DNA of 64,000 nt from Nemertoderma westbladi. Taxonomy: Eukaryota; Animalia; Xenacoelomorpha. The notes under the pieces are model-generated. The model worked only from the letters and a program-made list of their open reading frames with translations. It searched no databases and had not been told where the DNA came from. Within the stretch, counting starts at the first letter, position 1; each line of letters begins with the position of its first letter. Positions 160-38,299 of this stretch are shown here, in pieces. The stretch is taken from positions 124,001-188,000 of the forward strand of contig JAUCBJ010006962.1 in the NCBI GenBank assembly GCA_032718475.1, in the 5' to 3' direction. The position numbers were made by a program, and so were the translations under genes.

Positions 160-173
160 GTCTTAAAGTCACC
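160..173 (+). promoter_or_regulatory. Non-tRNA primer-binding-site position of element A, complementary to its own LTR
   Basis: GTCTTAAAGT(CACC) follows the LTR CA directly. Its reverse complement ACTTTAAGAC is at 6864-6873, preceded by GGTGAC. No TGG PBS. Confidence 0.65.
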
Positions 174-214
174 CGAAGCCTAGACAACTGCGACCTCCAC
201 CAATAGAAGTAAAG

Positions 215-3200
215 ATGAGCCAAGAAGGAGAGAGGACACCGCCGCGGACCCCGGACGACAACCTAACGATCCGCGAGGCCGCGACGCGACGGTATCGACC
301 CATGACGCCGGGTTCGTCTACGATAGGCGATCCTGCGGCCCAGGCGGAGGGCGGCCTTCTACCACAACAAGGAACGAGCGAGTCGAGAGAAGGGAGAGAC
401 GAGTCAACGCACGACAGTGGTCGAGGAACCGATGTTGCCGGCCAGCCACAGGCCGAGGGCGACGGACGGCCCACCGGAACGGCGATGGTTGGGCCGCCGG
501 TACGATGCCGAACACGGAGAGAAAGAGGGGACGTCGGCGACGAGGACGTCGGAGTCAGCGACCAGTTGCAACGAGCCTACAACGCAACGAGGAGACAGCT
601 AAAGGAAGCCAGGGAGGGAACAAAACTGGACCAGGTGGAACTAGAACAGCGACTAGGTGAGTCGAACAAACACTTTGATTATCTAGTTCGCTTTGGGCAA
701 GGACAGTTGGCGGGTGAGAGAGTGAGAGAGACCGCCACCAAACTGTTCGAACTGTGGCAATCTAGGGGTATAGAACCTGGTGTAGTGTACATAGGGCCAT
801 ATTTAATGGATGCCAGGGGAGTTAAGTTAGTGGGTTGGGCGGGGCCGCACGAGGGCGAATCCGAGGTTGACTCCGAGGATTCGGTCTCGTCGGTCAGCAA
901 AAACCCCGGAAAGCGGGGGAAAGTTAGCAGGACAGAGAGGCGATGGGAGTCCGTCGTGACCGATAAGTCCGCTACATCCTCCGCGAAAGAAAGAAGGGTG
1001 TTAGAAATAGATCTGGCGTGTCAGCTGAGCATTGCGGCGCTAGATCAGAAAGAGTTAGAGAGACAACTGAGTGAGGGGACCGCATTATTAGAGAAGAGAG
1101 AGAGTTGCCAGGGAATGTAGAGAGAGGGCCGAGAGAGTGGCGAGAGAGCTGAGGATGCGAGGAACGGGAGGAGAATGAGAACGAGCGTAAAGAGTGGGAG
1201 ACGAGGTAGAGAACGAGCGTAAAGAGCGGAGACGAGGTAGAGAACGAGCGTAAGAGCGAGAGAGAGAGACGAGGAGTAAGAGCGAAGCGAGCGCGAGGCG
1301 AGGCGGCTTGAGAGGGTTGCGAGAGAGGCAGAGTTGGCCGAGCAGAGTTTACGAGAGGATAGAGAGAGAGAGAGAGAGGGAAAGCGTATGCGGGATGATA
1401 TGCATGCCCGGCTAAGGGGGCTTATGCAGTATCAGGCCAAGCAGAAGCGCCGACTAGAACTGGCGCAGTTGGGACTATCAGAGAGTGAGGCTGGCTCGGG
1501 TAGTGTTTACGAGGAGCCAGAAGTAGTGAAACGTTTGTTAATACCCCACTTACAGGCACCGGGCGAGAGAACCAGAACTGGTGTAGCCGTACGGGCGGGG
1601 GGGGGGGGGTAATAATAATACGTTAGAAGAAATTAATATTAATAGTACCGTAGTAGATAACCCTAATCAAACTTTTATTGCAGGAAATATATTTTACCCG
1701 GTAATTTAAATTTAAATCAAATAATCTCAAATAATAATTCCAATTCAAATATTCAAAATAATCCGAACTAATAATTTAAATTCTAATATATATCCAAATA
1801 ATTCGAATAATAATTTAAATTTAGAAAATAATAATAATTCTAATTTAAATAATTTAAATAATAATATTGATAACGGGGCTATTAATACTAATGTAGACAC
1901 AGGTAGTCCGGCCAACGGGGCCTGCAAGGCCACGCAGTTAGTGCGCAGGGAGTAGCGGGGTGAGAGACCCCGACGGGGGCCTGGTAGGCCACGTAGTATA
2001 GGCAGGGAGTAGCGGGGGTGAGTCAACCCGACGGGAGCCTGCCAGGCCACGCAGTTGCACAGGGAGAGGCGGGGGTGAGTAGACCCAGCCGCAGTAGAGA
2101 CAGTGCGTCGACTAGAGAGGGGTGTAGAAGCGAAGTAAGAGGTAGTGAAGTTAGAAGTGGCGAGTGGGGGGGGGGGGGGCTACGGGCGCCCCACCACGGA
2201 AGATTAGTGGCGAGAGAGGGGGGGGCAGAGAATGCCCCACAAGAGGGACGTAGAAGTGAAGTAAGAGATAGTGAAGTTAGAAGCAGCGGGTGGGGGGGGG
2301 GGAGGCTACGGGCGCCCCACCACGAGAGATTAGTAGCGAGAGGGGGGGGGGGCAGAGAATGTCCCACAGGCGTCGGCGGATAATGCGCGGGGCAAGTTAG
2401 GTGAACCGCGGCACCCGACGACGGAGAATAGTAGGGGGATGGCGAGTATCCCCAGGAGGGTCCAGCCGGACAGAGTAGAGTCAGATGTTAGCGCCGAGAG
2501 TGGGCGAGCGACGAGACGTCAAGCCCAGTCAGAAGAGAGAAGAAGATTAGTAGAGTTTAACCGAGAGGTCGAAGAGAGAAGAAGAATAGTAGAGTTTAAC
2601 CGAGAGGTCGAAGAGAGAAGAAGTGAAGAGAATAGAAGAATCGTTGCTACGAGCAACCGGAGAGCGAGGACGGATAGCGAGCCGTCGGTAGTAGAGATGG
2701 AGTTAGGGAGTCAGTGGGGTCGAACTCCGGGAGATTGCCGTCGCCCCGGAGAAACGCACCGCATGCCAGGAGAGGGGTACAGGATGTACCGATACGAAGA
2801 CGAGAACAGGAGAGGGGATCGAAGAGAAACTTCCCGACGGGATATAGCTGCCGATCGAGAGTACGGTAGTCGCGGGGAGATTCGAGATTCGAGAAGATTA
2901 AACTTCGGTTCGGAAGGGCACATGCAGACTGCAGGACATACTGTAGGCCTTACTGCACATACTATTATAGGCCATGCTGGGAGAGATAGTGTAGGCGATA
3001 GGGTAGCGCGGACGACGGGATTAGATCCGGAAGTCGCGGAGTACATGCCGGTAGGTAGGCAAGAAGTAGATAGGCCTATATCAGTACCAGCACAGCAGCA
3101 TGACTATAGTATCCAGGGACATAACATATATCCAGGGGAGGGGAGAGTTATTGCTGATAGATGTATGGGCCCCAATATATTAACATCAACCCCAGTACCA

Positions 3201-3239
3201 AACATACCGGTGGGGGTGGGGGGGGGGGGGACAGGGTGA
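215..3239 (+). pseudogene. gag: Disrupted N-terminal gag region of element A (R/E-rich coiled-coil, Asn-rich tract, ~120 bp tandem duplication at 2130-2370)
   Basis: Chain of same-strand ORFs 215-1120, 1334-1612, 2018-2383, 2439-3239, broken at stops and G/GA runs, leading into the gag-PR ORF. Confidence 0.65.
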
Positions 3240-3279
3240 CATTCCCCCATTACAATATCAACAATATACTCGAACAGCA

Positions 3280-5709
3280 ATGAGAACATCGAACCCCCTG
3301 GACGAGAACAGGTCGTGCGACACGGAAATATGGAGGGGGCCGTTACCCCCAATGATATATCCGAAACAAGTTAGGTCAACAGACAGGACGGGCGGACCGC
3401 ACCCAACAGGAGAATCTGTACAGCATCCATCGAACCCATTGGAAGCACAGGCAATGGGAATGGCGACACTAATCGATGCACTAAAGACCAGGATCGAGTT
3501 ACCACCAGTCGAGCCATTTAAATTCGACGGAAGTAGGCTGGAAGAATACCTGCAATTTCGGCGCATGTACAGCAACGAGATATTAAGTAAGAACTTGACG
3601 CAGCCGGAGTGCCTAAAATATCTACAGGTGTATAAAGGAGGCCCAGCATACGACATCGTGAGGCAGTACCAGGGCATCGAGGGCGGCTTCACGACAGCAT
3701 GGCGGGCGCTAGACAGGGAGTACGGGCACCTGGCCAAGATCATCCGGCAGACCCTGAGAGGTATAACATCGGGTGGCCTACAGGATAACCCCGCTAGCAT
3801 AAAGACGTTTGCGAACAAAGTCGAGAAGGTGTTAATCGTGCTGAAGACACTAGACGCGCCATACGAACTCAACGCATCTCATAACATCACCATGATAGCG
3901 CAGGCACTGCCGATCTGGCTGCGGAGCAAGTGGAGGAAGATCGTCTTCTCCACTCGGGAGAAGAAAGGTGCGGAGCCGGGGCTAGAGGAAATGTCAAACT
4001 TCCTCAACTACAAATCCGAGTTGATCGCAGACCCAGTCTATAGTGAGGATAGTTTGGGGAAGGCGCCAAAGACCGAATACAACAGGCCTAAACCCGAACA
4101 CAATCCTGCAGATCCATTCCCGAGAGTAAGACAGTCGCTACCACATGTGGCCACACAGGGGGCTACAAGCCCACAGTTAGCTGGGAGTAGGGCCACACCG
4201 TGGCAGGGACAGAAAGAAAATAACACCACAAATAAACATAATCCCAACATACCCAGAAGGCCGAGTCTAGATAACCAAAACAATAAATCGGTAGATATAC
4301 ACCTACGCGCGATACATGAAGGACTATACAGGGAACGCTATAATCCAGGATTCGAATGTCAATTACATCGGGACAGAACCTATAAGACCATGAGTTGTAA
4401 GCACTGGCAAGCGTTGCCCAAACAAGATCGTATAGCCTACACAGACGCAAACGGACTATGTCATCGATGTGTGGTAGAAGGACACAGATCCGGAGAGTGT
4501 AGAGAAACAGCAGACAACGAGACTGGAGGCCAAACAATGGCTACAAGCACAACAGTAGCAAGAAAAAAGAGGAAAGTACTACTCGGGGTAGTAGCAGTGG
4601 AGATATCAGGAAAGGGCGGTCGATCAGTTACAACATTAATGCTGGTCGACAGCGGAGCAGCCTTCACACTGGTGGAGAATTGGGTGGCCGAAGAGATAGG
4701 GCTAAAGACAAGGCCGAATAGGATGGCGGTAACTACCGTCTCAAGTAAGGATGAGGTCCTGGAGATGAGGATGGGGCGGTGCAAGATAGCAGCGATAGCA
4801 CCGGGATGCGATTATGGGGCGATAATCGTCCCCATCCACGTGTTAGAATCGATGAATATCAACGCCAGGCAACCAACCAACATTGAGGTCGAACAATATA
4901 GATTCCTGGACAGTATCGATTTCTCAATACCAGATGTGGACGTTAGGAAGGTATCCATTATAGTAGTAATGGACTGTCCGACGGCCCACGAGAGAATACA
5001 GACGGTCTTCGGCGAAGACAGACAGCGGGATGCGACGGCGATCCTCACGCCGTTCGGATGGATGCTTAGCGGCCCAGTTAAAACCAAGATTCCATCCGGG
5101 GTGACGGAGACATCAGGGTGCATGTTACCAGGCACCATAGACGCAGAGGATGAAGAGAAGAAACCGGAGATGGTAGATGAGCCAGACGAGGAAGCAACAG
5201 TAGGAGAGTGGGCGGAGGAGAATGGATTTGACGCGGAAGACTTAGAGGCAATGGGATGGAACAAGGGTCCCAGCAAGTATCGGTATGGGGATGGAGAGGA
5301 GCAGACGGCGAGATGTCCGGAGGACTGTCCGAAGGAGTGTCCGGAGGAGTGTCCAGAGGAGTGTCCGGAAGAGACGCCGGTCCGGTTGAGAGGCATACCG
5401 ACAAGGGGGAGGTCGACTAAGAAGAGAGGATGGAAAGGGATAGGATTACTATTGTTCGTTCTGTTCTATCTATTCTTCCGATTTCCTTTCATTCTGCCGC
5501 CGGGAGACCAGATGAAGGGTGGCATTTCGCTGCCAGGAGATCAGGGAATTAAGAAGACGGCGGAGAGACCAGATTTTAGGGTGGCAGAAGAGGGAAAACC
5601 AATTCCTGGTCAGTTGGAATTGGCGAAGAAAGTGTGGCGTAGAATAAGAGGATGTATAGGAGGGCAGTGGGAGAGTGCCTACTGGAAGAAGGGGCACCTT
5701 AGAGTTTAG
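3280..5709 (+). CDS. gag: BEL/Pao Gag core + zinc knuckles + aspartic protease, with acidic/CPEE-repeat tail and hydrophobic segment
   Basis: LPPVEPFKFDG...LKYL...AWRALDREYG (DUF1759-like), CHRCVVEGHRSGEC knuckle, LVDSGAAFTLV protease, TPFGWMLSG. Confidence 0.85.
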   Translation: MRTSNPLDENRSCDTEIWRGPLPPMIYPKQVRSTDRTGGPHPTGESVQHPSNPLEAQAMGMATLIDALKTRIELPPVEPFKFDGSRLEEYLQFRRMYSNEILSKNLTQPECLKYLQVYKGGPAYDIVRQYQGIEGGFTTAWRALDREYGHLAKIIRQTLRGITSGGLQDNPASIKTFANKVEKVLIVLKTLDAPYELNASHNITMIAQALPIWLRSKWRKIVFSTREKKGAEPGLEEMSNFLNYKSELIADPVYSEDSLGKAPKTEYNRPKPEHNPADPFPRVRQSLPHVATQGATSPQLAGSRATPWQGQKENNTTNKHNPNIPRRPSLDNQNNKSVDIHLRAIHEGLYRERYNPGFECQLHRDRTYKTMSCKHWQALPKQDRIAYTDANGLCHRCVVEGHRSGECRETADNETGGQTMATSTTVARKKRKVLLGVVAVEISGKGGRSVTTLMLVDSGAAFTLVENWVAEEIGLKTRPNRMAVTTVSSKDEVLEMRMGRCKIAAIAPGCDYGAIIVPIHVLESMNINARQPTNIEVEQYRFLDSIDFSIPDVDVRKVSIIVVMDCPTAHERIQTVFGEDRQRDATAILTPFGWMLSGPVKTKIPSGVTETSGCMLPGTIDAEDEEKKPEMVDEPDEEATVGEWAEENGFDAEDLEAMGWNKGPSKYRYGDGEEQTARCPEDCPKECPEECPEECPEETPVRLRGIPTRGRSTKKRGWKGIGLLLFVLFYLFFRFPFILPPGDQMKGGISLPGDQGIKKTAERPDFRVAEEGKPIPGQLELAKKVWRRIRGCIGGQWESAYWKKGHLRV

Positions 5710-5711
5710 TC

Positions 5712-5742
5712 GTCCAATGTTTTGGACTGAGGGGGGTGAGAA
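5712..5742 (+). promoter_or_regulatory. Hairpin plus polypurine tract of element A
   Basis: GTCCAA-tgtt-TTGGAC stem then GAGGGGGGTGAGAA, followed by TG at 5743. Confidence 0.6.
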
Positions 5743-7076
5743 TGAGGGCGAGACGCCCTTCCCACGCACAAATAATTATTTAAATAATAAAATAATTAAA
5801 TAATTAAAATAAGAAAGTTAGTAGGAGATAGTAAGTAGAGAGCTAGAAAGTCAGAAAGTTAATAGAAGCTAGATAGTAAGTAGAAGTCAGTAGAAGTTAG
5901 TCAGATAATTAGTAGATAGTTAGACAGCAATTTAGAAGTTAGCAAGAAGTTAGAAGTCGGCGGGTAAGGGAGTGTGGTATATTGACATGCCACGAGTTGT
6001 AGCATAGGGGTTGTGGGCACCGTAAGCGCCACGTAGAAAGTAGTAGTAGAGTGGTTGTGGGCACCGAAAGCGCCACGTAGATGGAGGTAGTAACAGAGTG
6101 GTTTTGGGCACCGAAAGCGCCACATAGTTAGAAGAGTGGGTAGAGTTAGAGATTTTTAGTTAGAGAACTAGTTAGAGCTAGTAGAGTTGGAGTTAGTAGA
6201 GAGTTAGAGAGTTCTAGTTAGAGCTAGTAGAGTTAGAGTTAGTAGAGAGTTAGAGAGTTCTAGTTAGAGCTAGTAGAGTTAGAGTTAGTAGAGAGTTAGA
6301 AAGTTCTAGTTAGAGTTAGTAGAGTTAGAGTTAGTAGAGGTAGAGAGTTAGTAGAAGTAGAGAGTTAGTAGAGAGTTAGAAAGCTAATAGAGTTAGAATT
6401 AGAGTCAGTAGAGTTAGAGTTAGTAGACTAAGTAGTAAGTTAGATTTAGATAAGGTAGATAGTATGATAGCACAGGGGTAACACAAGAGTTTTAGCGCCT
6501 TTGAGGGCAGTCTGAGAGGAGTATGGAGAGGAGCTGCTGGCGAGAGAGAGTGCGGATGAGTGCGATTCAGGTGTGGGGAGAGAACAGAGCAGAGTTAGAG
6601 TGGAGTTAGAGCGGCGTTAGAGATAGAGTAGAGTTAGAAGTCAGAGTTGAGACAGAGTTTTAAAATTGTGTGAGAATCCACAATTGTCTCGACACGGGAC
6701 GCCAGATGTCTTGGTGCAAGATAGATGAAGTTGCACCAAGAGAGGGTAGTAACATCATACCCAGAGGGAGCGGCCTGGAAAGCCGACTCCAAAGTAAGAT
6801 AACTCCACCCCACATCCTATAGTAGATCGGGTTTCCAGCGGAATTGAAGCGCAGTATGGTGACACTTTAAGACCGTCACCGCCGTCACCAATACATATTA
6901 TCGTTACCGGTTAGTGCTTTCATCTATACTGACTGTGCTGTCATATCTATTATTCTATCAACGTACATATACCTTACTATCAATTATATTGGAAGAACGA
7001 CAAACAACAGCTTTCACTCACACGGCAGGGACGCGTATATAAACCAAACTGGTCGGGATCCTCTGATCCCGTCACA
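5743..7076 (+). repeat. 3' LTR of element A (start inferred from the PPT); U3 rich in AGAGTTAGT-type tandem repeats
   Basis: End fixed by the match to 1-159; start is the TG after the PPT; tandem repeats at ~6005-6125 and ~6140-6430. Confidence 0.6.
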
Positions 7077-10000
7077 CTATTTGCAAATAAGCGTGAACAT
7101 TTAGAAGCGTGAAAGGCGACTATGGTTCTAGAACAGCAAAGAAGACAGCAAATTTTAGAATATCAGTGTAAGCAAGACGCTATTGCTGAAGTTCAAAGAT
7201 GTATAACTTCAGAGAAAGAAGATTTGGAAACCTCAAAGGGACTGGAAAGGGTACAGTCTTTTTTAAAAAGATTCGATAAGTTTCAATCTTCAGTCATTAG
7301 ATTTAATACTGGGAGAAACTCTGGAGACACTACGGCTGACCAACATATGATGACGTCATTTAAGACTCATTTTCACGATATGTTGGCCAAGGGTGCTCAA
7401 ATTACTGATCCAGCAGAGATAGCACTTCAAGATTATCAGAAGAGACATGATGACATCAAATTAAGATATAACATTAAGTTAAGAGGAAATCGAATAGGTA
7501 TAAATACGGAACAACCAAACATAGCCAATAAGATGAAGTCAACTCCAGTCAACCCGGAGGAAAGGGAAACTAGTGTTAGAGTGCCATTGTTCCCTATGGG
7601 AGCGGAGCGAGCCACACATTCAGTAGAAAACTTTATAACAAAGGAGGAGGGGGAACATTATGCATCTGGGGAGTTATACCCGAGCGATGTTAGTCATATT
7701 CAACCAAATCCCGATACACCTATAGAACCAAGGTTTCCCATTGGACAAGTAGTACAGGAAGCGATTGCGAAGGGTAACGAGCCTGTAATGAGGATTGTAA
7801 GAGAAGTTTAAGGAGCTATACGGCGTGTTGACGATCGAGTTATTCGATCTGAAGAACGAATAGAACGACAACGGATAGTAGCTCGGCGTAATGAGAATGC
7901 TGAGTACAATGAATATGATAATGTAGATGAATAAGGAGATTATATGCCGACTAATCATAAGGTGATATTTATTAACAATAACTTCAGGACGGGCAGTGAA
8001 GACAGCATAACCAAGGTAGAAAAGAGGCCTAGTAAACTGGGGAATATTTTGAGAAATCGACTAAGTCACACGAGACAAACTGTAGACTTTGAACCAGTAC
8101 AAACTGAGCCAATGGCTCAGTAAGAGCCAAGAGCTTGTAAGGTCAAACCAGATATTGCTGAGGAAATAGTGTGCTTTGCTGCAAGGCAAGGATTGCCACC
8201 ACAGAAACCACCAAGATTTACTATTAGTGCAAAGTATTGGCATACTTTTAGTAACTATGTGGAGACACAAATAGCGGCAAAAGACTACTCCGACAGAAAA
8301 GTTTAATTATTTGTTCCAGTTACTTGACAAAGAACAACGTATTTTAGCAGACACCTACACAGGCTATCCTAGGGCATTTCAACTTTCTTATGATAGATTA
8401 ACAAAGGTCTATGGTGGGAGCACTAAAATGGCTAGATCTATAGCAGATTAGTTAACAAATGGTACTACTAGGATCGGCATGCTGCATTGCAGCTGTATTT
8501 TTAAGAATGCTGTGCCGGCTTATCGACAAAATTGCACCGCCACAACTCCCTATCACCCATGACATTTGCTAGATCATCCGCATCTTCAAGGCCAGTGTCC
8601 TTTAAGATGCGTCTCAAGAAAGTCATAGGCTGTCCACCATGCTTATTCACTCCATGAGGCTGCCAAAGTACAAGATTATGCACTGGCTGGTCCTCACGAC
8701 GAAAGCAATGTCCTGTAAAGCGAAGGCGATTTTGTTCTAGTGTCAAGCTTGGGGGAACCAATGAGACACCTCCAATGTTATATAGTGTCTGGTTGGAGAT
8801 GTGTGCATTGAACTTGACACAATGAACCCGGCGTAGCATTCTTGTGAATGTGCCATCCAGAGATTTGGTGTCCTCCTGCAGTTAGAGCCCATCATGGACT
8901 CCCATAGAGGAGTACTGTAACTACTGCTGCTCTAAATAACCGGACCTTAAGTTTCCGATTAATTCTCGGTGACTTCCAAATCCTGGAAAGCCTATTCAAG
9001 GCTGCCCATGCCTTTCCCTTACGTATTCGAAGGTCCTCATCTGACTTCCGCATCCATGATCCCAGGTAACAGAAGTCATCCACATGCTCAAGCATACCAT
9101 CTTTTGAGCTTATGCTCATCCGATCAGAGACTTGCTGAGGACTTTCAAAGTTAACTGTCAAAATTTTGGTCTTTCTGGAGTTAATAAAAAGACCAACACT
9201 AGAAGCAGCATGTTCTAATGAGCTGAGGAGCCGTTGGGCTCCCACTAGTGATTCTGAGAGTACTCCTAAGTCATCAGCAAAGTCTAATTATGGGGTGCAT
9301 CACCCCATAATCATTATGATGATCTAAGGACATGCGTAGAACATAGCCAACAACAATTATAAACAAGAATGGTGCAAGTGTGTCTCCCTGGAGGACGCCC
9401 CATAACACTTCAAATGGTTCTGTGTCACCGTCAACAGTAGACACAAATGTTGTCGAACCATCGTATACTGATCTGATTTGCTGCAATAATTTTATCAGGA
9501 ATCCCATATAATGAAAGTATGCTGAACATACGTGAGCGAGAGACTGAATCAAAGGCCTTGAAGAAGTCAACAAAGATAACAGCCAGATGCCTGTCTTTCT
9601 TTTTTGATAACTCTTCAATTATCCTTCTAAGTGCCAAAATGGGCTCCATGGTCCCACGACCTTTACGGAACCCATTCTGATTTCCACGGAGCAGTCTCTC
9701 AATGGGATCTCTGATGCGATTTAATAGAATTCGATTGTATAGCTTTGCAGCAATTGAGATCAATGAGATTCCCCGAAAAGAACCATATAGTGTTAGGTTG
9801 CCCTTCTTGGGAACTGGCACCAACTTATTTGTTAGAGAGTAAGATTGAGGACAGAGGAGAAAAGGTGTCTTTGAAACATATCTACGACATTATAAAGATA
9901 GAAGCAGAGTCTGAGCTGCAGTCTAACTATTCTGAAGAATATTTGCACAGAGATCAGAAAGTTTCAGTTTTAAAATCGAAAGTGGCTTTCTCAGCAGAAC

Positions 10001-10330
10001 AACATAGGACTTATAACTCTCTGGGAAGCACTAGAGACGACATACTCAAGGTAGCTGCACCCATAGGATCAATTCCAGCACAATCTCAGACATTATTGGC
10101 AGATTTTAGAGGGTGCCAATATTGTCACCAACAATTTCAGAAATACAACGATCACAAATGTAGTAATTGTAATCAGTTCAACAACAGTTCAATTCAGTGT
10201 ATACAGTCTTATGTGTAATTCATTCATCGTTTCAGGCATATTCGATAACTGACTGTGATTCTGACACATTTAGGCCAAGATGTAAACATAGTCAAAACAC
10301 GTTTTGCTGCTCTGAGCAAAACAGAACAAT
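7077..10330 (+). pseudogene. gag: Decayed BEL/Pao gag remnant, host of element A and interrupted by an RTE LINE
   Basis: ~8160 encodes EIVCFAARQGLPPQKPPRF, like DIGKFAARQGLPTQQPQKF of element B. 9826-10200 encodes LESKIE..SLKHIYDII..EAESELQSNYSEE and CQYC..DHKCSNC, like the B gag. Confidence 0.8.
8471..9825 (-). mobile_element. 5'-truncated, frameshifted RTE-type LINE (RT and C-terminus)
   Basis: VPVPKKGNL..RGISL, QNGFRKGR, FVDFFKAFDSV, GVLQGDTLAPFLF, FADDL, FCYLGS, LRFTGHCFRR. Confidence 0.85.
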
Positions 10331-10788
10331 GAATTTCCGGCCTAGCTGATTCCAAGAATCTGAGAAATCATGACGTCATAGACAGTGGCTTACCAACTTC
10401 CAATTAATATTAATAGCCACCTAGCGTCTTTGTTTACGTTTGAACAAATACCAGTTGAGTTCGGAAAATGAAAAATAGCTTCTATTGGCCATTTCAAACT
10501 GTTGTGTACTGGAATCGAACACGTCGGGGCGTGTGGGTTTGGCAAACTTATCAAGTTCTTGGTAAGTTTGGAGTAGACTGACTAGCTTATCGCTACTAAA
10601 AGGTACATTTTAGGCCGCAGAAGCTTTAACAGTTCCTATTGAACACAAACTGATTTATTATCTCATTAACTGCCAGTACAGAGTTCCTCCATATTGGTGT
10701 GATAGGTGAACCATTTTTACACGGGAGTTTTACTCTGCTTTGGAAAAGTTGCGGTCTTCTCTCAGTTAAGGAATTTGGATGGAGTTAA

Positions 10789-12092
10789 CCTTATTAGCAC
10801 TGGGCTATAAAATTTTGTACAAATACCGGAAGGGGGTTATATTGCCCCCCTCTTCCTAAAATCTACAAATTTTAACGAAAACGTCTGATTTTCTATTGTA
10901 CGTAGATTGAACTCAAAAATGTTAATTGATTTATACGATGCTATAAATTCACATTTTGAGGTTTTCGGGTGCGCTGATTCTAATGGAATACATTTCAAAT
11001 TATCCAGATCATTGCTACTGGTATATTTCGGCGTCTTATTGCAAATGTAGTGCCAAATTTCGTACCCATCAACAAAACGTACAAGTTTGAGATGTCCAGT
11101 GGTGTTTTTATTGATTCCATCGGATTCAGGACCCTCATAAACCCGTACAACGCAAGAAACAAGATGTTACTATCTACTGATCAACTTGCTTTTTTTCAAA
11201 ATTTAGTGTTGGCACAAAAAATTTCAACTACCACCGAAAAATACAACTTTCAGAACTCATATGTAATTTTTACTTATTCCATTGAATTCAGAACCCTCAC
11301 AATCCTGTATAACGCAAGGAACAAGCTGACACTTTCAATTGATATATATGATGGGTTTTAAACGTTGGTGCAAGCACAAAATTTGCACCCACTTCCAAAA
11401 AATACAGTTTGAGATGTCTTGTAAGATAAATTTATATTCAATTGAATTTAGAACCGCCATAAACCGCTAAAATGCGAGAAATAAGTTGTCACAATCAATT
11501 GAACTATTGAATGGATTTTCAAAATTTTGTGCCGCCACCAAATTTTGCACACAGCACCGAAAAATACAAGTTTGATACGCCTGGTACAACTCGTATATAT
11601 TCCATCGAAACGAGAAACCCAAAAACCCTTATTGCTCAAAAAACAGGTTAAATAATCAATTTACAAAATTGACATATTTCAAAATTTGCTGCTGGCACCA
11701 AAATTTGACACACGCCTAAAAAACAAGTTTGAAATTTCTAAATTATTTTATATGAGTTCCATGTAATTGCAAACACCAAAAAAACGGTGTAAATCAAAAA
11801 TAGAGATGTTTAATGAATGATATGTCATAATAATGTCATGAAATGTAATTTTCAAAAAATGTAACAAAACAGTGCCAATAGTAGGAATGAGAAATGGTGG
11901 TGCTATAACTCGAAAACTTCCCAATATCTTTGAAAACCGTTTTCACAATCATGAAGACAATATTATTTTAGCAAAAGTCATACAATGTCACATTCCCAAC
12001 TGCGTTTGTTTCAGAGTTATAGCAAAAAAACCACGGGGGTTGGTCCCCCCGCGGGTGGGGGGGGGGGGGGGGGGGGGGGTGGTTTAATATGG
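10789..12092. mobile_element. Non-autonomous TTAA-specific DNA transposon (piggyBac-type) with internal ~180 bp diverged tandem repeats
   Basis: TTAA|CCTTATTA ... TAATATGG|TTAA; repeated AAAATACAAGTTTGA-like blocks inside; no transposase. Confidence 0.6.
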
Positions 12093-12172
12093 TTAAAGTT
12101 TTTGCTTCATCTTCTTATAATCCTCTGAAAACATCCATGCATGGGCAGTTGACCCATTCCTTTTATCATGCG

Positions 12173-13306
12173 TTATGGAATTTTTGAATAAAGAAGGGAG
12201 TGGTAGGCCAAGTAAAAACATATGAACATGAACAAGTCAGGCAATGTTTGATACTTAAGAAACTTACCTCTAAGCATGGTAAACAATGTATAGATATAAG
12301 TATCACCCCCGTCGTCCACAACATGTGCTGAAGTAATTGAATACGAATCCAAGACCCGTCTGTACCATGACTGGCCGCTAGTGTCGACATACTTCTCTGA
12401 CTCAAACCGACAGGATGATGAAATATCTGCCTTCACGAATGTCGAAAAATTTTTTCCATGAGGTTCACCTTGGCAGGAACGAGCCACACGAGAATGTGTT
12501 TGAGGGCCATTGAATATTGGTGATTCAGTGTAGATTATATAGTGGTACTTCCCTTGCAGGAATTGTAAGATAAACATCGTGTATGGTGCGAACAGGTTTG
12601 TAGCTGGTGGATTGCTCACCTTATCATACTTGGCATCACTTGATTCAAAATCTCCAGTGATTCGTAGAATACAACTAAAGAACCAACCAACTTCCCCAAT
12701 AAAAGAATGAGCGGCAAATAGTACCATCTTACCATTAATTTGCTCGAAAACTTCAGTCTCATATTCTCTTTCAATGTCTTCCTTCACCATATCTGGAAGT
12801 ATGCACTTCGTTATTTCAAGATCTGTTTCCGTAAATCCCTTATTTAAAACACCATATTCATTGTCCACATTGAATAGTGTACAGCGTGGGGCCATTGCCC
12901 AAGTCCCACAAACAAAGAGTTTACCATCTGGACGGATTATAACCCTGCGAATGTAATTATGACTAGCCCATTCTGATAACACAGTCCCTGATATTCCAGA
13001 TCCAGCCAATTTTTCTTTATATTTGGAGGTTGTCAATCCCCACTTCAGTCCTTTTCCGGTATCCTCCATAGTTTCAGTGTCAATAAGGTAGAGCTCATTC
13101 CGCCCGAATACGAATACGCGATCGCCTTCTGGTGTAAATGTAAAATCATTTAAAGGCAGTGTCGCATTATGTGTGTTTGGTTTATCATCGGGTGGCTTAA
13201 AAACCTTCATGTCATCATCAATAACGAAAGTTACATTAACTTGATTTGAAGTCACAACATTAAATATGTAGAAGATCATAAATGCTAAAATATTGTGGCA
13301 GTTCAT
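12173..13306 (-). CDS. Semaphorin-like (Sema domain) secreted protein; probable exon 13306-12268 ending at a GTAAGT donor
   Basis: Hydrophobic N-terminal signal; VFGRNELY, HNYIR, LFVCGTWAMAPRC, YIIYTE, SRVARSC, FSTFVKA match Sema-domain motifs. Confidence 0.75.
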   Translation of the reverse strand: MNCHNILAFMIFYIFNVVTSNQVNVTFVIDDDMKVFKPPDDKPNTHNATLPLNDFTFTPEGDRVFVFGRNELYLIDTETMEDTGKGLKWGLTTSKYKEKLAGSGISGTVLSEWASHNYIRRVIIRPDGKLFVCGTWAMAPRCTLFNVDNEYGVLNKGFTETDLEITKCILPDMVKEDIEREYETEVFEQINGKMVLFAAHSFIGEVGWFFSCILRITGDFESSDAKYDKVSNPPATNLFAPYTMFILQFLQGKYHYIIYTESPIFNGPQTHSRVARSCQGEPHGKNFSTFVKADISSSCRFESEKYVDTSGQSWYRRVLDSYSITSAHVVDDGGDTYIYTLFTMLRGKFLKYQTLPDLFMFICFYLAYHSLLYSKIP

Positions 13307-14213
13307 CCTATCGGCGGTGAATAACGGATTAATTATTTATTAATTAGTTTTCGTTTTTCCCACATATGACATGATATCAAGTATACAATTCTCTAGAATA
13401 GTATTGTTTTATACAGTGTTACAGTATACAATGTTTTGTACAGCCGTAAATTTACGTCCGTCGTAACTCTAAATGAATCGTAAGTTGGATTACGACTATC
13501 GTAGCCATGATTGTCGTATATTGGTATGCATAAAACTGTATATGATTAATCGTACTTCCGATTATCGGAATTTTGTCTTAAACTGTCGTAAACTGTCTTC
13601 TTGCATTAAATTAATTAATACTAATAATAACCGTATACTAGGATGTGTAATTAATGATAAATTACCTAATTCTACCATTTTTCTAAACATTTATTTTCCG
13701 TGTGACAGCTATGATAATGCTGACTTATTTGACGACCTATTGGGCCAATGTGAAGCCATTGTTTCTGAATTCCCTAGTAGTCGTACTTGTATATTAGGGG
13801 ATTTTAACGCCGACCCTGGTCGCAACTTCGGAGCTAAACTTAAAAGTTTCTGTGTAGACGCAGAGTTAACATTGGTAGACCTTCAGCTATTGCCTTGTAA
13901 TTCTTTCAATTTCATAAGTAACGTTCATGATACTGTGTCTTGGCTTGACCATATTTTATCCTCTAAAGATTTTTATAGTAATATAGTAAGTGTTAACCTA
14001 CTGTATAATTCAGTGGGTGATGGTGCCACTATCCATCTCCTCCTGTCAATTATATCCTACAATTGAATATGACTCAGTGCTTCCTTGTGCATCTGTACAT
14101 AGGGCTAATTGGGCTAAGGCGACGCCTGAAAATCTCCGAAGTTATTCCAATAATGTAAACAATTTGCTATGTAACTTAGATCTCCCCGAGGAGGCTATTT
14201 ATTGTTGTGATGT

Positions 14214-16293
14214 TTATTTTATTTATTTATTTATTTATTCCAGACATCAGTAAAATTAAATACATAATACAGACGTCCATATAGCACAGTAAAACAATAA
14301 ATTGTATTATTATAATTAAATCAACGTATGTAATGTAGGGTAGGGTATAGGGTAGGCTTACTATGTAAGCATCCAGTAAAAAAATATATTGCATAATAAA
14401 AATATTAGGTAATATAATAAAAATGCCCTTAGTACAGTAGGCTAGAGTCCAGCATGGCCCGTATCCGCGACGTAGCGGACGTTACCCTGGTGACCGCTTG
14501 GATAAGTTTATTATTACTCGCATCTACTCTGGTAAATAAACTCCTAATCGATTTATGACGGATATGTATGAAACATGGTAGTTTGTTATTTCCAAAAAAG
14601 AGGGACATACTGTAACCACTTTGTATGGAGAATAACAACCTAGCCGCCCTATTATACGCCACCTTTAAACGATTATACACTACAGAAGAGTAATTGCTAC
14701 GTGACCACAATGAATTAAAATATACCGTAGTTAAAAATGCACGAAACAAAGTAACTTTAGCTGATATAGAACAGCATTTAAATTTTCGAACTAACGTATT
14801 TGCCTTTGCGTGTAACCCTCTATTAGCTTTCTTGATGTCATAATCATCATCCCTACTCTCATGAAATAAGTGCCCTAAATATACCCATTTGTGAGCTCTG
14901 GAAATCTGTTTACCATATTAAAAGAAAGGAATAACACCATTATTACTATAACTACTAGACAAAAAATACATGACCTTGGTTTTCTTTAGATTGAAAATAA
15001 TATTGTGATTTACAGCATAACTAAAGCAACAATTGATAAGAGACTGCAAACCAATAGCGGAATTAGAGATGAGACATATATCGTCTGCATACATTATATG
15101 ATTTAATCTACACGAAGTGGGGACTTCGCGCAGCACGAAGTTGGCGAAGCCTTAGCGAATTGACACTGTTAGGGGGTGGGTCAATTTATGCAAATAGTTG
15201 TCGTCGTTAGTTGTTTTCACTTTCAGACCTTTGGCCCTCTAGCGGCAGACTGGAGAACTGCAGATGGATTCGCCTCCTTTGAAAGTCACAGCTAATGGTC
15301 TAATACATATCTGCCAAGTTTCAGCTTAAACGGATTAAAAGCAAAGAAATGGGAGGGCATTTAATGTTTAGACATGTGGCCCTCTAGCGGGAGACCATTG
15401 CACTGATGGTGTCTGAAAGTCTCTCAAAAATCTCAACTTTTGCTCATATTGATACCTACAAATTTTCAACTTGGCAGCTTTAAATCCGACAAAGTTATTA
15501 GTATGTCAAAATCGTAACGACGACGACGACGACAACGACGACGACGACAACGACGACGACGACGACGACGACAACGACGACGACGACAACTATTTGCATA
15601 AATTGACCCACCCCCTAACAGTGTCAATTCGCTAAGGCTCCGCCAACTTCGTGGCTCGCCCCACAACCGTCTAATAAGCACCCCACATTGGTATCCACTA
15701 AATCGTAACTGAGTTGATCCATGTATACGTTAAATAAGTATCCACTCAAAATATCCCCCTGCTTAACCCCATTTGATACAGTAAAAGGACTAGAAAAAGA
15801 TTCACCCCATTTGACCTGCAATGTTTGCTTTCTGTACCAATAAGCTAATACCCTAACAATATACTTGGGTATACCCTTGAGGAGAAGTTTCTCAAAAAGT
15901 TTATCATGTAGTATTCTATCAAATGCTTTGCTAGAGTCCACAAAGCACACATATACTGAAGAACCGTTATATAAATAATAATCAATTATCTCCTTGAGGG
16001 TAAAAATGCACAATTCTGTACCACTACGGCGTTTAAACGAGTACTGATAATCGCTTACAATTAACTGTGATTCAATACGAGATAGGATAATATACTCAAT
16101 TAAATTACTAAATATTGAGGCTATAGCTATAGGTCGATAATTACCCTTATCCTCTATTGGTCCATTTTTATCTTTTATAATCGGAATTAATTAAACAATG
16201 GATTGCGCTAGTTGGTATTACACCGTGAATATTCATAGCGGTAACTAATAAGGCCAATAGTGTGTTGAGCCGGGGGCTATTGCTATTGCTATA
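14214..16293 (-). mobile_element. 5'-truncated LINE of similar type inserted in the outer LINE, TSD GATGT
   Basis: FVDSSKAFD, GVKQGDILS, YADD; (AATA)n tail at ~14214-14240; GATGT at 14209-14213 and 16294-16298. Confidence 0.85.
15113..15662 (-). mobile_element. Non-autonomous asymmetric element flanked by ACA, with (GTC)n microsatellite; short copy
   Basis: Same ends as 56174-57434. Removing it plus one ACA restores the LINE frame LDGC-RLNH. Confidence 0.8.
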
Positions 16294-18378
16294 GATGTGC
16301 ACTGTTGTAACCGTGACCACAATGCTTCCATCGTTAAAGCTACTCTAATGTTGTAAATGCTCTACAAAACGCGACCCGATCTAATATTCCCTCTAACAAA
16401 GTTGGGGCACATAAAAACCCTCCTATTCCAGGTTGGAATGATCTTGTAAAAGAAAAACGCTCTGCCTCTCTAGAAGCCTTCCATATATGGCGAGAAAACG
16501 GTCGCCCGCGTTCCGGAATTCTCTGGGAAGTAAAAAGGAAAACCTCTGCCCAATATAAACTTGCTCTTAGGAATTGTAGGAAGCAAGAATCTACTTTACG
16601 GAATGATAAACTCGCTGAGTCGTTTCTTGGTTCATCTAAAGATTTTTGGCGCAATGTCAAAGCACATAATAATTCAAAATTACCATGTGCTAGTAATGTT
16701 GGCGGGGCTCACTCCGAAGCTGAGATCTCTGACCTGTTTGGTAGGAAATACAGCGATATTTTTAACTCTGTATCTGCGGATCCTATTGATATTTCATTTC
16801 TAAATAATACCTTTATCTCTAGGGATGGGTCCGATAGGCCGCATATTAGTGCGGCGAATGTGGCCGATGCAATTAAGGACCTTGAGCGTGGAAAGGTGGC
16901 TGGCCCCGACGGTATATGTCCCAAATCTCTGAAATTTGCAGGAAATCGCCTCCCTGTTATATTATGCCTCTTGTTTAATAGCTTCCTCACCCATGGCTTC
17001 CTGCCGCAGTCATTAATATCCTGTAACCTGATCCCAGTTGTGAAAAACAAGAACTGCTCGTTGTCCGAGGATAACAACTACAGGCCTATTGCAACTGCTT
17101 CATTGCTGGTATAAAGAACACTGTTTACTCCCCCACATTAAATCGCACGTTAACCAAACTAGCAATCAATTTGGTTTTCAAACCAACCTAGGCACTGATG
17201 TTCAAAAAGATGTTCGATCTTAGGATTTCCGTCTGTGTGATTAGAATTATTATTTTTCTGGTATGCCAACCAGCTTATTTCAGTATCTTGGGGCTCGTCT
17301 CAAAGTAAATGGTTCACAGTCGGCAATGGCGTTTGTCAGGGAAGTTTGATTTCCCCGATTTTGTTCAATATCTACCTCGATGAACTGAGTCAGCGTCTTA
17401 ACAGTTCTAAAGTGGGCTGTATAGTATCAAAATTACTGATTAATCACATTTTATACGCTGATGAACTTTGTCTCATTTCTCCTAGTATCTACGGTCTCCA
17501 TGGCCTCCTCCGCATCTGCGAGAATTATGGACTGCAGTTCGACATCTCCTTTAATCCGTCGAAGTCGAAGTGTATGTATTTCTCCCAAACTAAATTCGGC
17601 CGCATGGGTGATGTATATTTGAACGGAAAGATTCTAGAATATGTTAAAGAATATACTTATTTGGGACACATAATATCCTGTGACTTATCCGACAAACCGG
17701 ATATGTATGTTTTCGAAGTGCAGTTTACCTATAAAGACTCTTCTCTTTAAGGCTTATTGCTATTCGCTATATTGTGCATCCGTATGGTCGACTTTCCGTG
17801 TAGAGTGTTTGCGGACCGTTAAGGTGGCGTACAACTCTGCATTCAGTCATCTATTTGGGTATAGGCGTTGCGACGACGTTGACACAATATTTGACTGCCA
17901 CCGTGTTAACAACTTCAAAGCTGTCAGCCGGGTACTGGCATTCTCGTTGCGTAATCGCGTCGCAATTTCCTGCAATCCAATCCTTGTAGCTTGTGCAAAC
18001 TTAGGTTACTCATCTCTCACTGATCGATGGGATGTGCTGCTTGTGTAATGCTCACCCCCCACTTCATGGCTTGCCCCCACATTATCGCGGCCTTCTCATA
18101 TTTCAAATCCTTGCAAATATTATATAATGTGAATTAATTCAATGTATATCTTATTATTTATTTTTGAATACATCAGACTTGAGCTACCGGTACTCAATTT
18201 TAATATTTAATATTTTGAATTCAGTAATGGGAATTGCTATTCTTTTGGTATTGGTTAGGCAGTGCCTGAGTGTATCCTTTTTTTTGTTTTTTTTGTTTAA
18301 TATTGTGCTTTCAAATTGCAAATGCGGTACCTTGGATATCGATTTAATTTAGTATTCTACAGTATATAGTACTCAATG

Positions 18379-20599
18379 TGTTACGGTATATGGCGCTGTA
18401 CACATTATTAGCCATTATACAGTATAATATATTGGTTCATTATACAGTATAATATATTAGTCCGTTATACTGTACGCAATATTAGTCCGTTATGCAGTAT
18501 AATATTTTAGATAAGACATAATAGCGAGGTGATATTTAGATAAGGAAACTGAAACGCCCATATATTTTGAACTCATCCATTTTGTATAGTATGTAGCCCT
18601 ACCTACGTAATTTTGTATTAAGATATAAGTAGATAGTTCCAGGGTAGCAAGTTCAGTTGGACCCTGGATATGTGCTTGCTGTTATTAGCTTCGATAGGGC
18701 CAGCATCTAGGGACGCAATCCTAACCATTCCGCAGCCAGGGACACGATCCATTACCATATATGGTAATAATTTACGGGTTGGAAGCCCTGAGGTTCACAA
18801 TCCGGCTTTCTAATTGGACTAACTGTTTCCAGGTTGGTCTAATGCTAGCGCGGACTGGAGAGCCAATAGGAGAGCGATTGCATCACCCTTATTGCATCAC
18901 CCTTCTCGGATCACCTATAAATTGGCGGTTTGCCGGTAGAGCTGTACAATCCTACTCCTCTACAACACCAACCCCATCTCAATATTCTGATGTTAGATGT
19001 TTAGGAGTACAATTTGTGCGTATTTTCTGCATTTCTACCCTTTGATTAATTTTCTTGGAATGATTCGTTAGTGTTATTATTCTTAACTGTGTTTCTCAAT
19101 CAATCCTATTGATTACTGCTAATTACAACCGGAACTATGATTTCTACCTCTTTCGTTAATGGTTCTATGTAATTTATTTCGACGCAATAATCCTACGGGA
19201 TTTCTGAGACTGTCAGACTTGTGATTTGCATGCGCCGCTACGGTAGCTATTCAATAAATGGAGGGCTAAGGTGCCAGTAGGCGGTGGGCGCATCGGGGGG
19301 TTAGCGACGAAGGGAGTGCGGAGGATTCAAAGGCGGGCAACGCTGGCGGGGGTCAACGTTGTGGTCGGGCAATTTGAACTGTAGGTAGAGACCGCTCGCT
19401 GGTACGGTAACTAGGGGGCTGATGATCCAGATTTTGTCTCTATTTAGTATTAGGGGGGCAGGAATTGGGTTAGTTAGGAAGCCTAGATGTACCCGGGAGG
19501 GGCCTGCATACCCTACAGTAAATTGCGAATTAGTCAATTGCGAATTATTACGTTGCGAATTATATAATTGCGGATTGTATAATTGCAAGTTATACTATTG
19601 TGATCTGTGATTGCTGACGCTGATTGGTGTGTTACTGAAGTGTGCCTATGATTACGAATGCTTAGGTAGGCGCCCCTTTCTCTTTGATTGATTTCTATTT
19701 CTTAGTTACAACAAATAATTACTGATTAGGTCAAAGTAATACGGCATTTTAGGCTATTACTAGCGAAACCTGTTGTGTAATAAATTAGAATTACGCATTC
19801 TGGAACTCTTAGTAATTAGTGCGCTGTTACATATTTGTGACTGAAATTGATTAGTAAAATTAAGAATTAGTACGCAGCATAGTGGAGAGTAGCTAAGGTA
19901 ATAATTTAGAGTACCGTAAACTATTCACGCTGAGCGGTTATTTGCATTAGCGGGCAATAAGCTAGATCGCAGTAGTCAGTACGCAAGACCCTAGTAGATT
20001 GCTGGCCTAAAGCCAGCTGCAGGCAAGTTTAGACCCAGAGCGGTATCACCCACGAAAGACAGTGTACTGTACCAATTTTTTGATTATTTTAAATATTCTC
20101 GCATTCACACATTCCGTTTGGGAATCCCCAGTATTCGCGATTAGAAAAGACGTAGACAATAGCGTGCTTTAATAGTGGTAAAATTAGGTGTAAGAATACT
20201 CTGAGTGAAAAGCCTCTCGCACTCGTCTTAAGTAAGCTTAGGGAGCCGACTCGGGTTTATTGTTTTGGTTATTCCCGCGTGGCTCATAGATTCGAACAGT
20301 TAGCTCTCTATCGAGCGATCGGTAGAGAAAGGAACAAGTGATTTTGCAGGAGCTGTGTAAATTTAGTAAAATATATTAGCGGACGGCAGATTAGCGCCAT
20401 CCAACGGTAAGTAGTGGTTTTGTATTTAGCAGCCTTTACATTTTAGTAATAGCACGCTCCTGATCCCCTTTACTTAACAGTAGAGCAGTCTTTGTGTCTT
20501 ATTGGTTAGGCGAGAACTCATTAGGTTGGCAGAGAAGTATACTGGTATTTGTCTGTTCAACAGTTCTGCTGTTAGTATAGGGGTCGCGCCAGTTTAACA
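18379..20599 (+). repeat. 5' LTR of element B (2221 bp)
   Basis: Near-identical to 36325-38294 apart from one large indel. Confidence 0.95.
18860..18955 (+). promoter_or_regulatory. Putative LTR core promoter (CCAAT, TATAAA 18916-18921, start near 18946)
   Basis: GCCAATAG at ~18861, CTATAAAT, downstream AATAAA at ~19254. Motif inspection only. Confidence 0.5.
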
Positions 20600-20611
20600 G
20601 TAGGGTATGTG
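20600..20611 (+). promoter_or_regulatory. Non-tRNA primer-binding-site position of element B, complementary to its own LTR
   Basis: GTAGGGTATG follows the LTR CA directly. Exact complement CATACCCTAC at 19507-19516; imperfect complement ACAATCCTAC at 18946-18955. Confidence 0.65.
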
Positions 20612-21795
20612 TTTATTGGCTGTTGCTTGCAGCAGTCAATAGTGTATTCTTAGGCTGTTAGGTAGGATCACTGTTACTGCAGTAATTAAGTAATAAGTTA
20701 GAGCACATGATATTGTCTGCTGTAGGCCATAGCGTACAGTAGAACATTGAGTGTATTCTTAGGCTGTTAGTTTAGATTACTGTATTCACTGGTCGCGTAT
20801 GATAGTACAGTAGTACATTAGGCTGATTGCTGTTACTGCGTACGGTAGAAGGACATTTGTTTGCCGTACCAAACACAGTATTAATTAGGCTGTTAGGTTG
20901 GTGTACGGTTTTACTTACTGTACTGCATACAGTGGAAGTATACGGTAGTGCGTTTTTTACTAATTGCGAATACAGCAGTTCCTTAGGCCTTAGGGCGAAT
21001 TGTAATTAGTAAGTTTTTTGAAATTTTAGCTAGGTTTGCGAGAATTCAGTTTCGGTCAAAATTATTTGTAAAATTCTAGAGTTTTGTACCGGTATGTTAG
21101 GTAACCGCTTAGTTATTTTATACCATCTGGAGATACATGGCAAGACGGAACTTCTGAGTTTGGGGTTCGTGTGGGTCTGCGGGTTCGGTTTGCAATCAGC
21201 GAAGGGACTGAATATTTGGACGTGGACGTGGAATCTCACAGCAAACAAGGTTAGTTGTTCTGTTGGCACCATTGTGTTTGTGGAAGCAGTAAAAAATTAT
21301 CGGTTGTTTAACTGCGAAGCTGAACTCAATTTATTAGTTAGGATATTTAGGTTTAGCCGGCCATGGTTTTTTGAATCGCTCAAGTTAGAGAGAGAGTTAG
21401 AGAGAGTCGCAACCCGAAGATGTAGCCACGCGCTAGTGGATACATATAATATTTGAAATTAAAATTACGTTGATTAGAGCTATATATGCAAAATTGGAAT
21501 TATTTGGGTGGCAAATTTATTCTGAATATTTTGTATTAGATTCAGAAATTATTTTGTGTCATACCGGTATATAATTGCTATAATAGCTATATAATAATAT
21601 TTTTGTTTAAATATTGTGCTAGTATTTGCTATAACTATACCCCATTAAATTCACAATATTGCATTGCGAATTTATTTTGACATTTTGGACCAACTGATTA
21701 TTAGACAAATAATTTGACCGTATTTCGGTTAAATTATAATTATATCTCGAACCTTTGCGAGATATTTTTGCCGAAAGGCAAACATTATTTAGACT

Positions 21796-38294: not shown

Positions 38295-38299
38295 CAATG

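Follow-up and report, generated by a model that had tools for sequence, protein, structure and literature searches.

Two BEL/Pao retrotransposons in a 64,000-nt window of the Nemertoderma westbladi genome (the window being the whole stretch of DNA analysed; the retrotransposons are here called elements A and B) and 23 families of metagenomic relatives carry, directly or shortly after the end of the 5′ LTR, a site that is complementary to a segment of their own LTR. We consider it probable (roughly 0.7), judging from sequence, that these elements use their own RNA to start reverse transcription in a Tf1-like manner, that the primer is usually built by splicing, and that elements A and B represent intron-less forms. 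The main feature of the group, missed in the first-pass annotation, is that a predicted LTR intron interrupts the complement in most relatives.

Layout and affiliation of elements A and B

Element B is full-length (18379-38294, 19.9 kb; all features described here lie on the plus strand) and flanked by a 5-bp target duplication with identical bases at 18374-18378 and 38295-38299. Its 5′ LTR spans 2221 nt (18379-20599) and the 3′ LTR (36325-38294), to which it is 99% identical, lacks 250 nt corresponding to 18825-19074. The TATA box (TATAAA, 18916-18921) sits in this segment and is therefore missing from the 3′ LTR copy. The candidate self-primer at 19507-19516, with a second copy in the 3′ LTR at 37202-37211, ends in AC and is located 1083 nt upstream of the LTR end. 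The TATA box lies 591 nt 5′ of it, one AATAAA also lies 5′ of it (19253-19258; disrupted in 35-60% of the family depth), and another AATAAA is found 262 nt 3′ of it (19779-19784). The site at the PBS position (20600-20609) is followed by gag-pol in several frames (21796-30217) encoding an RT with YMDD, RNase H and integrase, and by a broken extra reading frame with two CCHC-type knuckles (30940-34500). Pfam matches include Peptidase_A17 (E 1.4e-39), DUF1759, DUF5641 and Integrase_H2C2, and what we take to be the four acidic residues of RNase H are retained. PF05380 was present in 120 of 120 homologues among the matches listed. The named relatives of element B come from cnidarians, echinoderms, molluscs and one tunicate. 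No relative came out of a scan of viral contigs.

Element A is cut by the start of the window, so that its left end falls outside and only the 3′ end of the 5′ LTR is seen (1-159, 94% identical to 6918-7076). The PBS-position site (160-169) is followed by a broken gag-protease region (215-5709) with DUF1759 and an aspartyl protease (ORF 3184-5709), in which a domain search found no match to RT, RNase H or integrase, by a polypurine tract (5730-5742) and by a 3′ LTR of 1334 nt with TG...CA ends (5743-7076). The candidate self-primer, again ending in AC, was scored in the 3′ LTR (6864-6873, 203 nt upstream of the LTR end), because the 5′ copy would fall just before base 1. A variant hexamer, AATACA, which might act as polyA signal, lies 16 nt 3′ of it (6890-6895), and a TATA-like TATATAAA (7036-7043), 40 nt upstream of the LTR end, might be a promoter or a polyA variant. 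Element A is internally deleted, and its placement in BEL/Pao is drawn from DUF1759 and the protease only. A homologue search returned no longer relatives of its Gag-protease, and it is therefore absent from the tree described below.

In the ICTV description of Belpaoviridae (PMC8742986) the PBS measures 18 nt and fits tRNA-Arg or tRNA-Gly, the LTRs are 0.2-1.2 kb long and the genomes 4.2-10 kb. Elements A and B share with them the domain content and order (a Pao-type pol with PR-RT-RH-IN order in element B; element A has no pol part), a DUF1759 gag, the TG...CA LTRs, the polypurine tract and, where both ends lie in the window, the 5-bp target duplication (PMC8742986). Cys-His boxes are visible in the translations of both. 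However, neither LTR is followed by the TGG with which a PBS matching the 3′ end of a host tRNA would begin, the LTRs measure 1.3 and 2.2 kb, and element B reaches 19.9 kb. By protein, elements A and B are BEL/Pao, yet they fall outside the described tRNA-primed kind. They are not Tf1/sushi elements either, as Pao-type domains are found instead of a Ty3/gypsy (chromovirus) polymerase.

Complementarity between LTR and PBS position

The exact complementarity that had been claimed for both elements was recovered. In element A, 160-169 directly follows the CA at 158-159 and its reverse complement occurs at a single place in the window (6864-6873); in element B, 20600-20609 directly follows the CA at 20598-20599 and the reverse complement is found twice, at 19507-19516 and, in the 3′ LTR, at 37202-37211. 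The absence of TGG from both sites was also confirmed, and the number of copies expected by chance under each LTR's own composition is 0.0013 for A and 0.0008 for B. When offsets of 0-6 nt and introns were permitted, shuffled sequences reached 10 nt in 2/300 (A) and 1/300 (B) cases. Predicted pairing extends beyond 10 positions. In element A it covers 14 bp and includes a 2-nt bulge (6858-6873 against 160-173), and in element B it covers 12 bp including two G-U pairs, followed by a mismatch and about 10 more pairs with the LTR end. Allowing introns in the two LTRs did not improve either match. In A and B an N-G-T extension also pairs with the end of the LTR, but it was rejected as a general trait because the relatives do not generally share it.

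We then compared 79 metagenomic BEL/Pao loci, beginning with elements in which the LTR end is fixed by a repeat. All nine such elements without TGG had a complement of 10-15 nt in their own LTR, as opposed to neither of the two with TGG, which also had no LTR intron. When each site was instead set against the LTR of another element, 10 nt were reached in 1 of 110 pairs. A blind scan found at least 11 nt in 21/64 loci compared to 29/768 swaps. Scans over every CA, or over all GT-AG pairs, gave many chance matches of 9-11 nt and were too noisy alone, and anchored and swapped tests were therefore used instead. In total, 25 families showed a match, namely 23 relatives (19 across a predicted intron, 4 contiguous) plus the contiguous elements A and B. 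The site begins 0-6 nt after the LTR end, the match ends in AC or AT in 23 of 24 unconstrained cases, and in the tRNA-primed relatives TGG starts 2-5 nt after the LTR end, which is the same place. An LTR complement of about 11 nt at the PBS position together with a missing tRNA PBS is what would be expected of Tf1-type priming. Fifteen loci with at least 200 nt of upstream DNA showed neither signature, which speaks against self-priming. The metagenome contigs were assembled from short reads across repeats, and some are chimeric (the LTRs of locus L044 are 74% alike). Locus L064, with 10 nt across a 37-nt gap, was dropped from the counts as doubtful and is labelled spliced in the tree, and L014 has the exon-1 half only (8 nt), the other half being missing because the contig ends.

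Sister families thus keep the complementarity although its letters differ between them. The 25 site sequences are all different, none starts with TGG, and they therefore cannot be one host tRNA end. No tRNA genes were predicted in the 64,000-nt window (ARAGORN) and no Rfam matches were found in positions 1-40000. The suggestion made in the first-pass annotation of a tRNA-independent, self-primed BEL/Pao lineage is supported by these results and withstood those attempts at refutation that were run. In a quick, unrooted tree built without named reference elements the TGG elements group together as a single clade (SH-aLRT 99), contiguous-primer forms are dispersed among spliced ones, and element B, on a long branch, has an unsure position.

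Primer and PBS co-vary across families and at one pair within family B. In the majority of depth of the family B runs, each position counted separately, C is changed to T at 19513 (5082/5269 in X1, 5915/5915 in X3, 73/73 in X4) and G to A at 20603 (628/789 in X1, 1106/1106 in X3). No RNA run was among the runs listed as containing family B, and run X5, which may be RNA, covers neither position. The two positions face each other in the proposed helix, where both changes together would turn C-G into U-A. This compensatory change is a single pair with two transitions, seen among the variable places listed (40 of 464), and its chance was estimated at 0.001 to 0.13.

Split candidate primers and possible priming mechanisms

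In 19 families the full match appears only when a predicted GT-AG intron is removed from the LTR. Nearly all of these introns have GTAAG or GTACG donors and pyrimidine-rich AG acceptors, and in the six repeat-defined split cases the unspliced match is 6-9 nt. An inverted copy at the DNA level cannot account for a match that arises only once the RNA is spliced. Of the 17 spliced families scored, 13 have AATAAA or ATTAAA 6-96 nt 3′ of the primer, and a TATA-like box, as a sequence motif only, lies 36-591 nt upstream of it in 4/19 spliced and 2/6 contiguous families. The mean predicted helix probability was 0.62 for spliced versus 0.06 for unspliced RNA, with values of at least 0.7 in 11 of the 17 spliced loci but below 0.2 in five; the helix was also predicted in cis in all three contiguous relatives folded. 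In element B, where AATAAA intervenes between the sole upstream TATA and the primer, the probability was 0.00 from the TATA-based start, 0.25 with 60 nt upstream and 1.00, among the starts folded, for an RNA starting at the primer only. In element A the clearest TATA-like box lies 3′ of the primer, and if it is the promoter the transcript would be without primer. The positions of TATA and polyA motifs in A and B therefore seem to fit self-priming imperfectly.

In the proposed mechanism the genomic RNA would start at or upstream of the LTR segment, and in most relatives the host spliceosome would bring the primer halves together by excising an intron, about 70-430 nt long, from the 5′ copy of the LTR. 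The LTR segment would fold onto the site after the LTR, and the RT/RNase H of the element would, as in Tf1, cleave immediately 3′ of the terminal AC or AU to yield a 3′-OH. Minus strong-stop DNA would then extend from the end of the LTR as far as this cut and jump by means of the short repeat that separates cut and polyA site. Because the new PBS would be a copy of the primer made in plus-strand synthesis, the two would co-vary automatically. Since the intron is located 5′ of the cut, progeny would get it only from the unspliced 3′ LTR copy, and copying of a spliced 3′ copy would leave the primer contiguous and without an intron, which is how A and B are likely to have arisen. Intron retention requires that the 5′ copy is spliced and the 3′ copy is not, which is unexplained and counts against the model.

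Other readings of the pairing were considered. The primer could be element RNA that is not cut in cis, coming either from a short LTR transcript of its own, which would be spliced, terminated early at the polyA signal of the 5′ LTR and then trimmed, or from the second packaged genome. Cis cleavage has a precedent in the available text on Tf1 (PMC7175516), and the cis helix predicted in 11/17 spliced and 3/3 contiguous loci also argues against this reading. On the other hand, a polyA signal so soon after the primer in 13/17 spliced families means that short LTR transcripts could exist, and the partners in element B are 1083 nt apart with no cis helix predicted from the TATA-based start; we regard this reading as unlikely. 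The pairing could also be real but structural, serving packaging, dimer formation, polyA or translation control, with another primer in use. Long-range LTR-leader pairings are common in retroelements, the predicted helix of element B runs on into the LTR end, and the TATA and polyA positions of A and B are imperfect for priming. However, the site occupies the position at which tRNA-primed relatives have TGG (2-5 nt past the LTR), no alternative primer site remains there, the TGG relatives lack the pairing (0/2), and the primer length and conserved AC or AT end are also at odds with this reading, which makes a purely structural role improbable.

An outside RNA such as a tRNA half, tRNA fragment or snRNA, with an incidental LTR match, would have a parallel in the half-tRNA priming described for Copia lineages in the accessible text of PMC6317226. 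It appears very improbable in view of 25 site sequences in 25 families that each fit their own LTR only (1/110 in swaps); a fixed host RNA would keep the site constant, whereas 20603 varies in family B along with its partner. Chance, or an inverted DNA copy arising in replication or assembly, might be suspected from the many 9-11 nt matches in permissive scans and from chimeric short-read assemblies such as L044, but is hardly credible given the swap and shuffle controls and the 19 families in which splice-site motifs split the match, so that it is not contiguous in DNA.

Beyond self-priming as such, we lean, somewhat less firmly, towards a large and probably old marine radiation of tRNA-independent BEL/Pao elements in which the host spliceosome assembles the primer. 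The LTR intron would split the primer, only the spliced 5′ copy would prime, the unspliced 3′ copy would be inert and pass the intron on, and splicing would gate replication, with intron-less forms like A and B arising repeatedly via reverse-transcribed spliced 3′ copies.

Relation to known self-primed elements

Animal genomes contain BEL/Pao elements in abundance; these elements are defined as tRNA-primed, and their replication is little studied (PMC8742986). In the literature searched we found no description of self-priming in BEL/Pao and no precedent for a primer that exists only after splicing. If true, BEL/Pao would be the third LTR superfamily with self-priming, a host RNA-processing step would be tied directly to the start of reverse transcription, and both the missing PBS in annotation and the free drift of the PBS between families would be explained; an escape from silencing by tRNA fragments might also be possible.

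The Sailor lineage (Sinbad, Sparrow, Surcouf) of marine invertebrates is described in the available parts of two papers as the dominant BEL/Pao in molluscs and annelids (PMC6238403, PMC8556966), and neither these parts nor those of the Sinbad paper mention a PBS or priming. Molluscs are also among the hosts of the named relatives of element B, a likeness by host range. Self-priming outside the Tf1/sushi group has been predicted from sequence for the plant Copia TAR lineage (Houba, Osr-1); that lineage differs in belonging to Copia and to plants, and a split primer is not mentioned in the accessible text (PMC6317226).

In Tf1, Tf2 and Tj1, the Tf1/sushi group of Ty3/gypsy and Tcn1, the sources as available describe no tRNA PBS but about 11 nt of own LTR RNA that are complementary to the site following the 5′ LTR, with RNase H cleavage generating the primer in Tf1 (PMC7175516, PMC4600332). 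The elements described here share the missing tRNA PBS and the own-LTR complement, and their modal match of 11 nt equals the Tf1 primer length given there (PMC7175516). They differ in belonging to another superfamily, in a primer that is intron-split in 19 of 25 families and may lie well inside the RNA, in a gap of 0-6 nt between site and LTR end, and in the conserved AC or AT at the primer end.

Complementary sites in elements A and B

The two BEL/Pao elements of the window, A and B, each carry behind the 5′ LTR a site complementary to a segment of the LTR (the candidate primer), and this post-LTR complementarity is a real feature of both. The exact 10-mer matches claimed in the first-pass annotation were borne out by sequence search: the reverse complement of the A site (160-169) was found once in the 64 kb, at 6864-6873, and that of the B site (20600-20609) at 19507-19516 and 37202-37211, one in each LTR. 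Expected chance copies amount to 0.0013 for A and 0.0008 for B, and when offsets and introns are permitted, an equally good match arises in 2 of 300 shuffles for A and in 1 of 300 for B.

Element B spans 18379-38294, as defined by its LTR pair and a 5-bp target duplication, which is twice the ICTV size range for Belpaoviridae. Its LTRs are 99% alike except for 250 nt with CCAAT- and TATA-like boxes (18825-19074), present in the 5′ LTR and absent from the 3′ LTR. Gag-pol is spread over several frames with the domains Peptidase_A17, DUF1759 and DUF5641, and a Pao domain occurs in 120 of 120 B homologues among the matches listed. About 6 kb (30218-36324) separate pol from the 3′ LTR; a broken extra reading frame in B (~30940-34500) has two CCHC-type knuckles and gave no Pfam match at threshold. 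Element A encodes gag and protease only; its LTRs are 94% alike across the 159 nt that the window covers, its 5′ primer copy falls outside it, and its LTR includes purine-rich tandem repeats with a 46-nt unit (6020-6430). Judged by sequence comparison, A and B are distant from each other; B was absent from the 14 best translated matches to the A Gag-protease, and A likewise from those of B.

Variation within family B was compared between four sequencing runs over 18300-22300, with 40 of 464 variable places listed. In the proposed helix 19516 lies opposite 20600, and therefore 19513 would pair with 20603. Both positions show transitions, at a depth that is low compared to the flanks: 19513 C>T makes up 96-100% of depth in X1, X3 and X4, three runs that contain the family, and at 20603, where X4 has no cover, G>A reaches 80-100% in X1 and X3. 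The pair is C-G in the window copy and U-A in most family B depth, the two partners being read separately on short contigs. The chance that some pair among ten has both partners listed ranges from 0.001 (40 rows) to 0.13 (464 rows).

Related BEL/Pao loci

Metagenome contigs were scanned with an alignment of B pol and 40 homologues. Of the 467 stretches confirmed, the 80 best were kept, and these represent 79 loci. For a first test set of A, B and nine loci the 5′ LTR end was set by a direct repeat, independently of any complement. The envisaged covariation of the site with a complement in the element's own LTR was found in 9 of 9 repeat-defined elements without a TGG site, where 10-15 nt of complement begin 0-4 nt past the LTR end, versus 1 of 110 swapped LTR-site pairs reaching 10 nt and 0 of 110 reaching 11. 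The complement is contiguous in A, B and L044. In six loci it depends on removal of a predicted GT-AG LTR intron of 67-186 nt (L002, 15 nt; L003 and L060, 12 each; L016 and L047, 11 each; L076, 10), with an unspliced match of 6-9 nt. Neither complement nor LTR intron was found in L004 and L025, which have TGG sites.

In a blind scan each ACA or ATA upstream of gag was taken as a candidate LTR end. Matches of at least 11 nt were obtained in 21 of 64 loci versus 29 of 768 swaps, and of at least 10 nt in 28 of 64 versus 77 of 768, the swaps including sister copies; the 13-nt own-pair match of L066 was wrongly placed. Sorting by eye gave 22 loci of the spliced type (19 families), four contiguous (L026, L031, L044, L071), five of the TGG type (L004, L013, L025, L036 and probably L023), whose sites we take to be tRNA-like, one doubtful (L064) and 47 unsorted; outside the repeat-defined set these assignments are less independent, because the LTR end was picked by motif. 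Among the unsorted loci, 32 have less than 200 nt upstream of gag, and neither signature was found in the other 15, where more than 200 nt upstream of gag were examined.

Of the 24 matches for which no particular end was required, 23 have AC or AT at the end of the primer side; pairing in L060 runs one base past this end, and the L031 match was obtained with the AC/AT constraint imposed. In 13 of the 17 spliced families that were scored, a polyA hexamer lies downstream of the primer. With folding started 60 nt upstream of the donor, an arbitrary choice, the mean probability of the predicted helix was 0.62 for spliced versus 0.06 for unspliced RNA, with at least 0.7 in 11 of 17 loci and less than 0.2 in 5 of 17; in L043 the unspliced form pairs better, via the exon-2 half. 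Contiguous L026, L044 and L071 reached 0.87-0.99. In L015 (523-827) alternative acceptors predict a 75-nt or a 305-nt intron, and since exon 2 opens with the identical five bases, either splice would give the same primer. Three families (L016/L017, L044, L060), all of the self-complementary type, have LTRs ending in TA rather than CA, and the L029 contig consists of 6138-nt tandem copies of a single BEL/Pao element.

In a quick, unrooted IQ-TREE of 34 RT-RNase H rows (46 of 80 rows omitted), the four TGG rows cluster in a single group that leaves B outside (SH-aLRT 99). An earlier FastTree run placed B, a long branch of unsure position, within the TGG-containing clade. The four contiguous rows require four changes, L026 being sister to spliced L046 (SH-aLRT 99) and L071 lying within spliced families (SH-aLRT 98); as the tree is unrooted, gain and loss are indistinguishable.

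A self-priming model

The reading of A and B as self-priming, tRNA-independent elements, put forward in the first-pass annotation, was both supported and extended. We consider self-priming in some form highly probable (about 0.84), and cis cleavage as in Tf1 a good though lesser probability. The initial 11 bases of Tf1 RNA pair with its own PBS and are cut by RNase H (PMC7175516), Tj1 was proposed to self-prime as Tf1 does (PMC4600332), and self-priming is recorded for Tf1/sushi, Tcn1 and Copia TAR (PMC6317226). A and B likely share this working principle, but do not belong to the Tf1/sushi group. Belpaoviridae are tRNA-primed according to the ICTV (PMC8742986). A term search in the available parts of four BEL/Pao papers (PMC554778, PMC3118150, PMC6238403, PMC8556966) gave no mention of PBS or priming, and BEL priming is not treated in those of PMC3601003, PMC5443660 and PMC8220671. 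Neither a self-priming BEL/Pao element nor a splice-built primer was found in full-text literature searches, although subscription papers, Repbase, GyDB or supplements could mention them; the splice-dependent form, predicted in most relatives, is undescribed in the literature searched.

So far the sequence itself shows where the site lies, how long it is and that its letters are family-specific, together with the splice-site motifs. In the proposed mechanism the 5′ LTR copy would be spliced, the LTR segment would pair with the post-LTR site, RT/RNase H would cut 3′ of AC or AU, strong-stop synthesis would proceed from the cut primer, and the jump would use the repeat lying between the cut and the polyA site. 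Each cycle would copy the primer anew into the PBS, so that co-variation would be automatic and drift fast, and since the intron would survive only via the unspliced 3′ copy, intron-less families would appear sporadically; both consequences fit the data.

For A and B themselves, the arrangement of the promoter is where the model is weakest. The B TATA lies 591 nt upstream of the primer with an AATAAA in between, inside which 35-60% of family depth carries an insertion, and the B helix is predicted only when the RNA starts near the primer. The best TATA-like box of A sits downstream of the primer.

Other features of the window

The start of a third LTR, ~85% alike to the B LTR, occupies 63540-64000, the window ending before its primer site. 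A tandem duplication of ~3.08 kb occupies 42825-48993 (98.7% alike). An RVT_1 reading frame with duplicated pieces on the minus strand (53474-58112) probably belongs to a non-LTR element, and inverted arms of ~1 kb, 96.6% alike, at 58390-62735 mark a possible DNA transposon.
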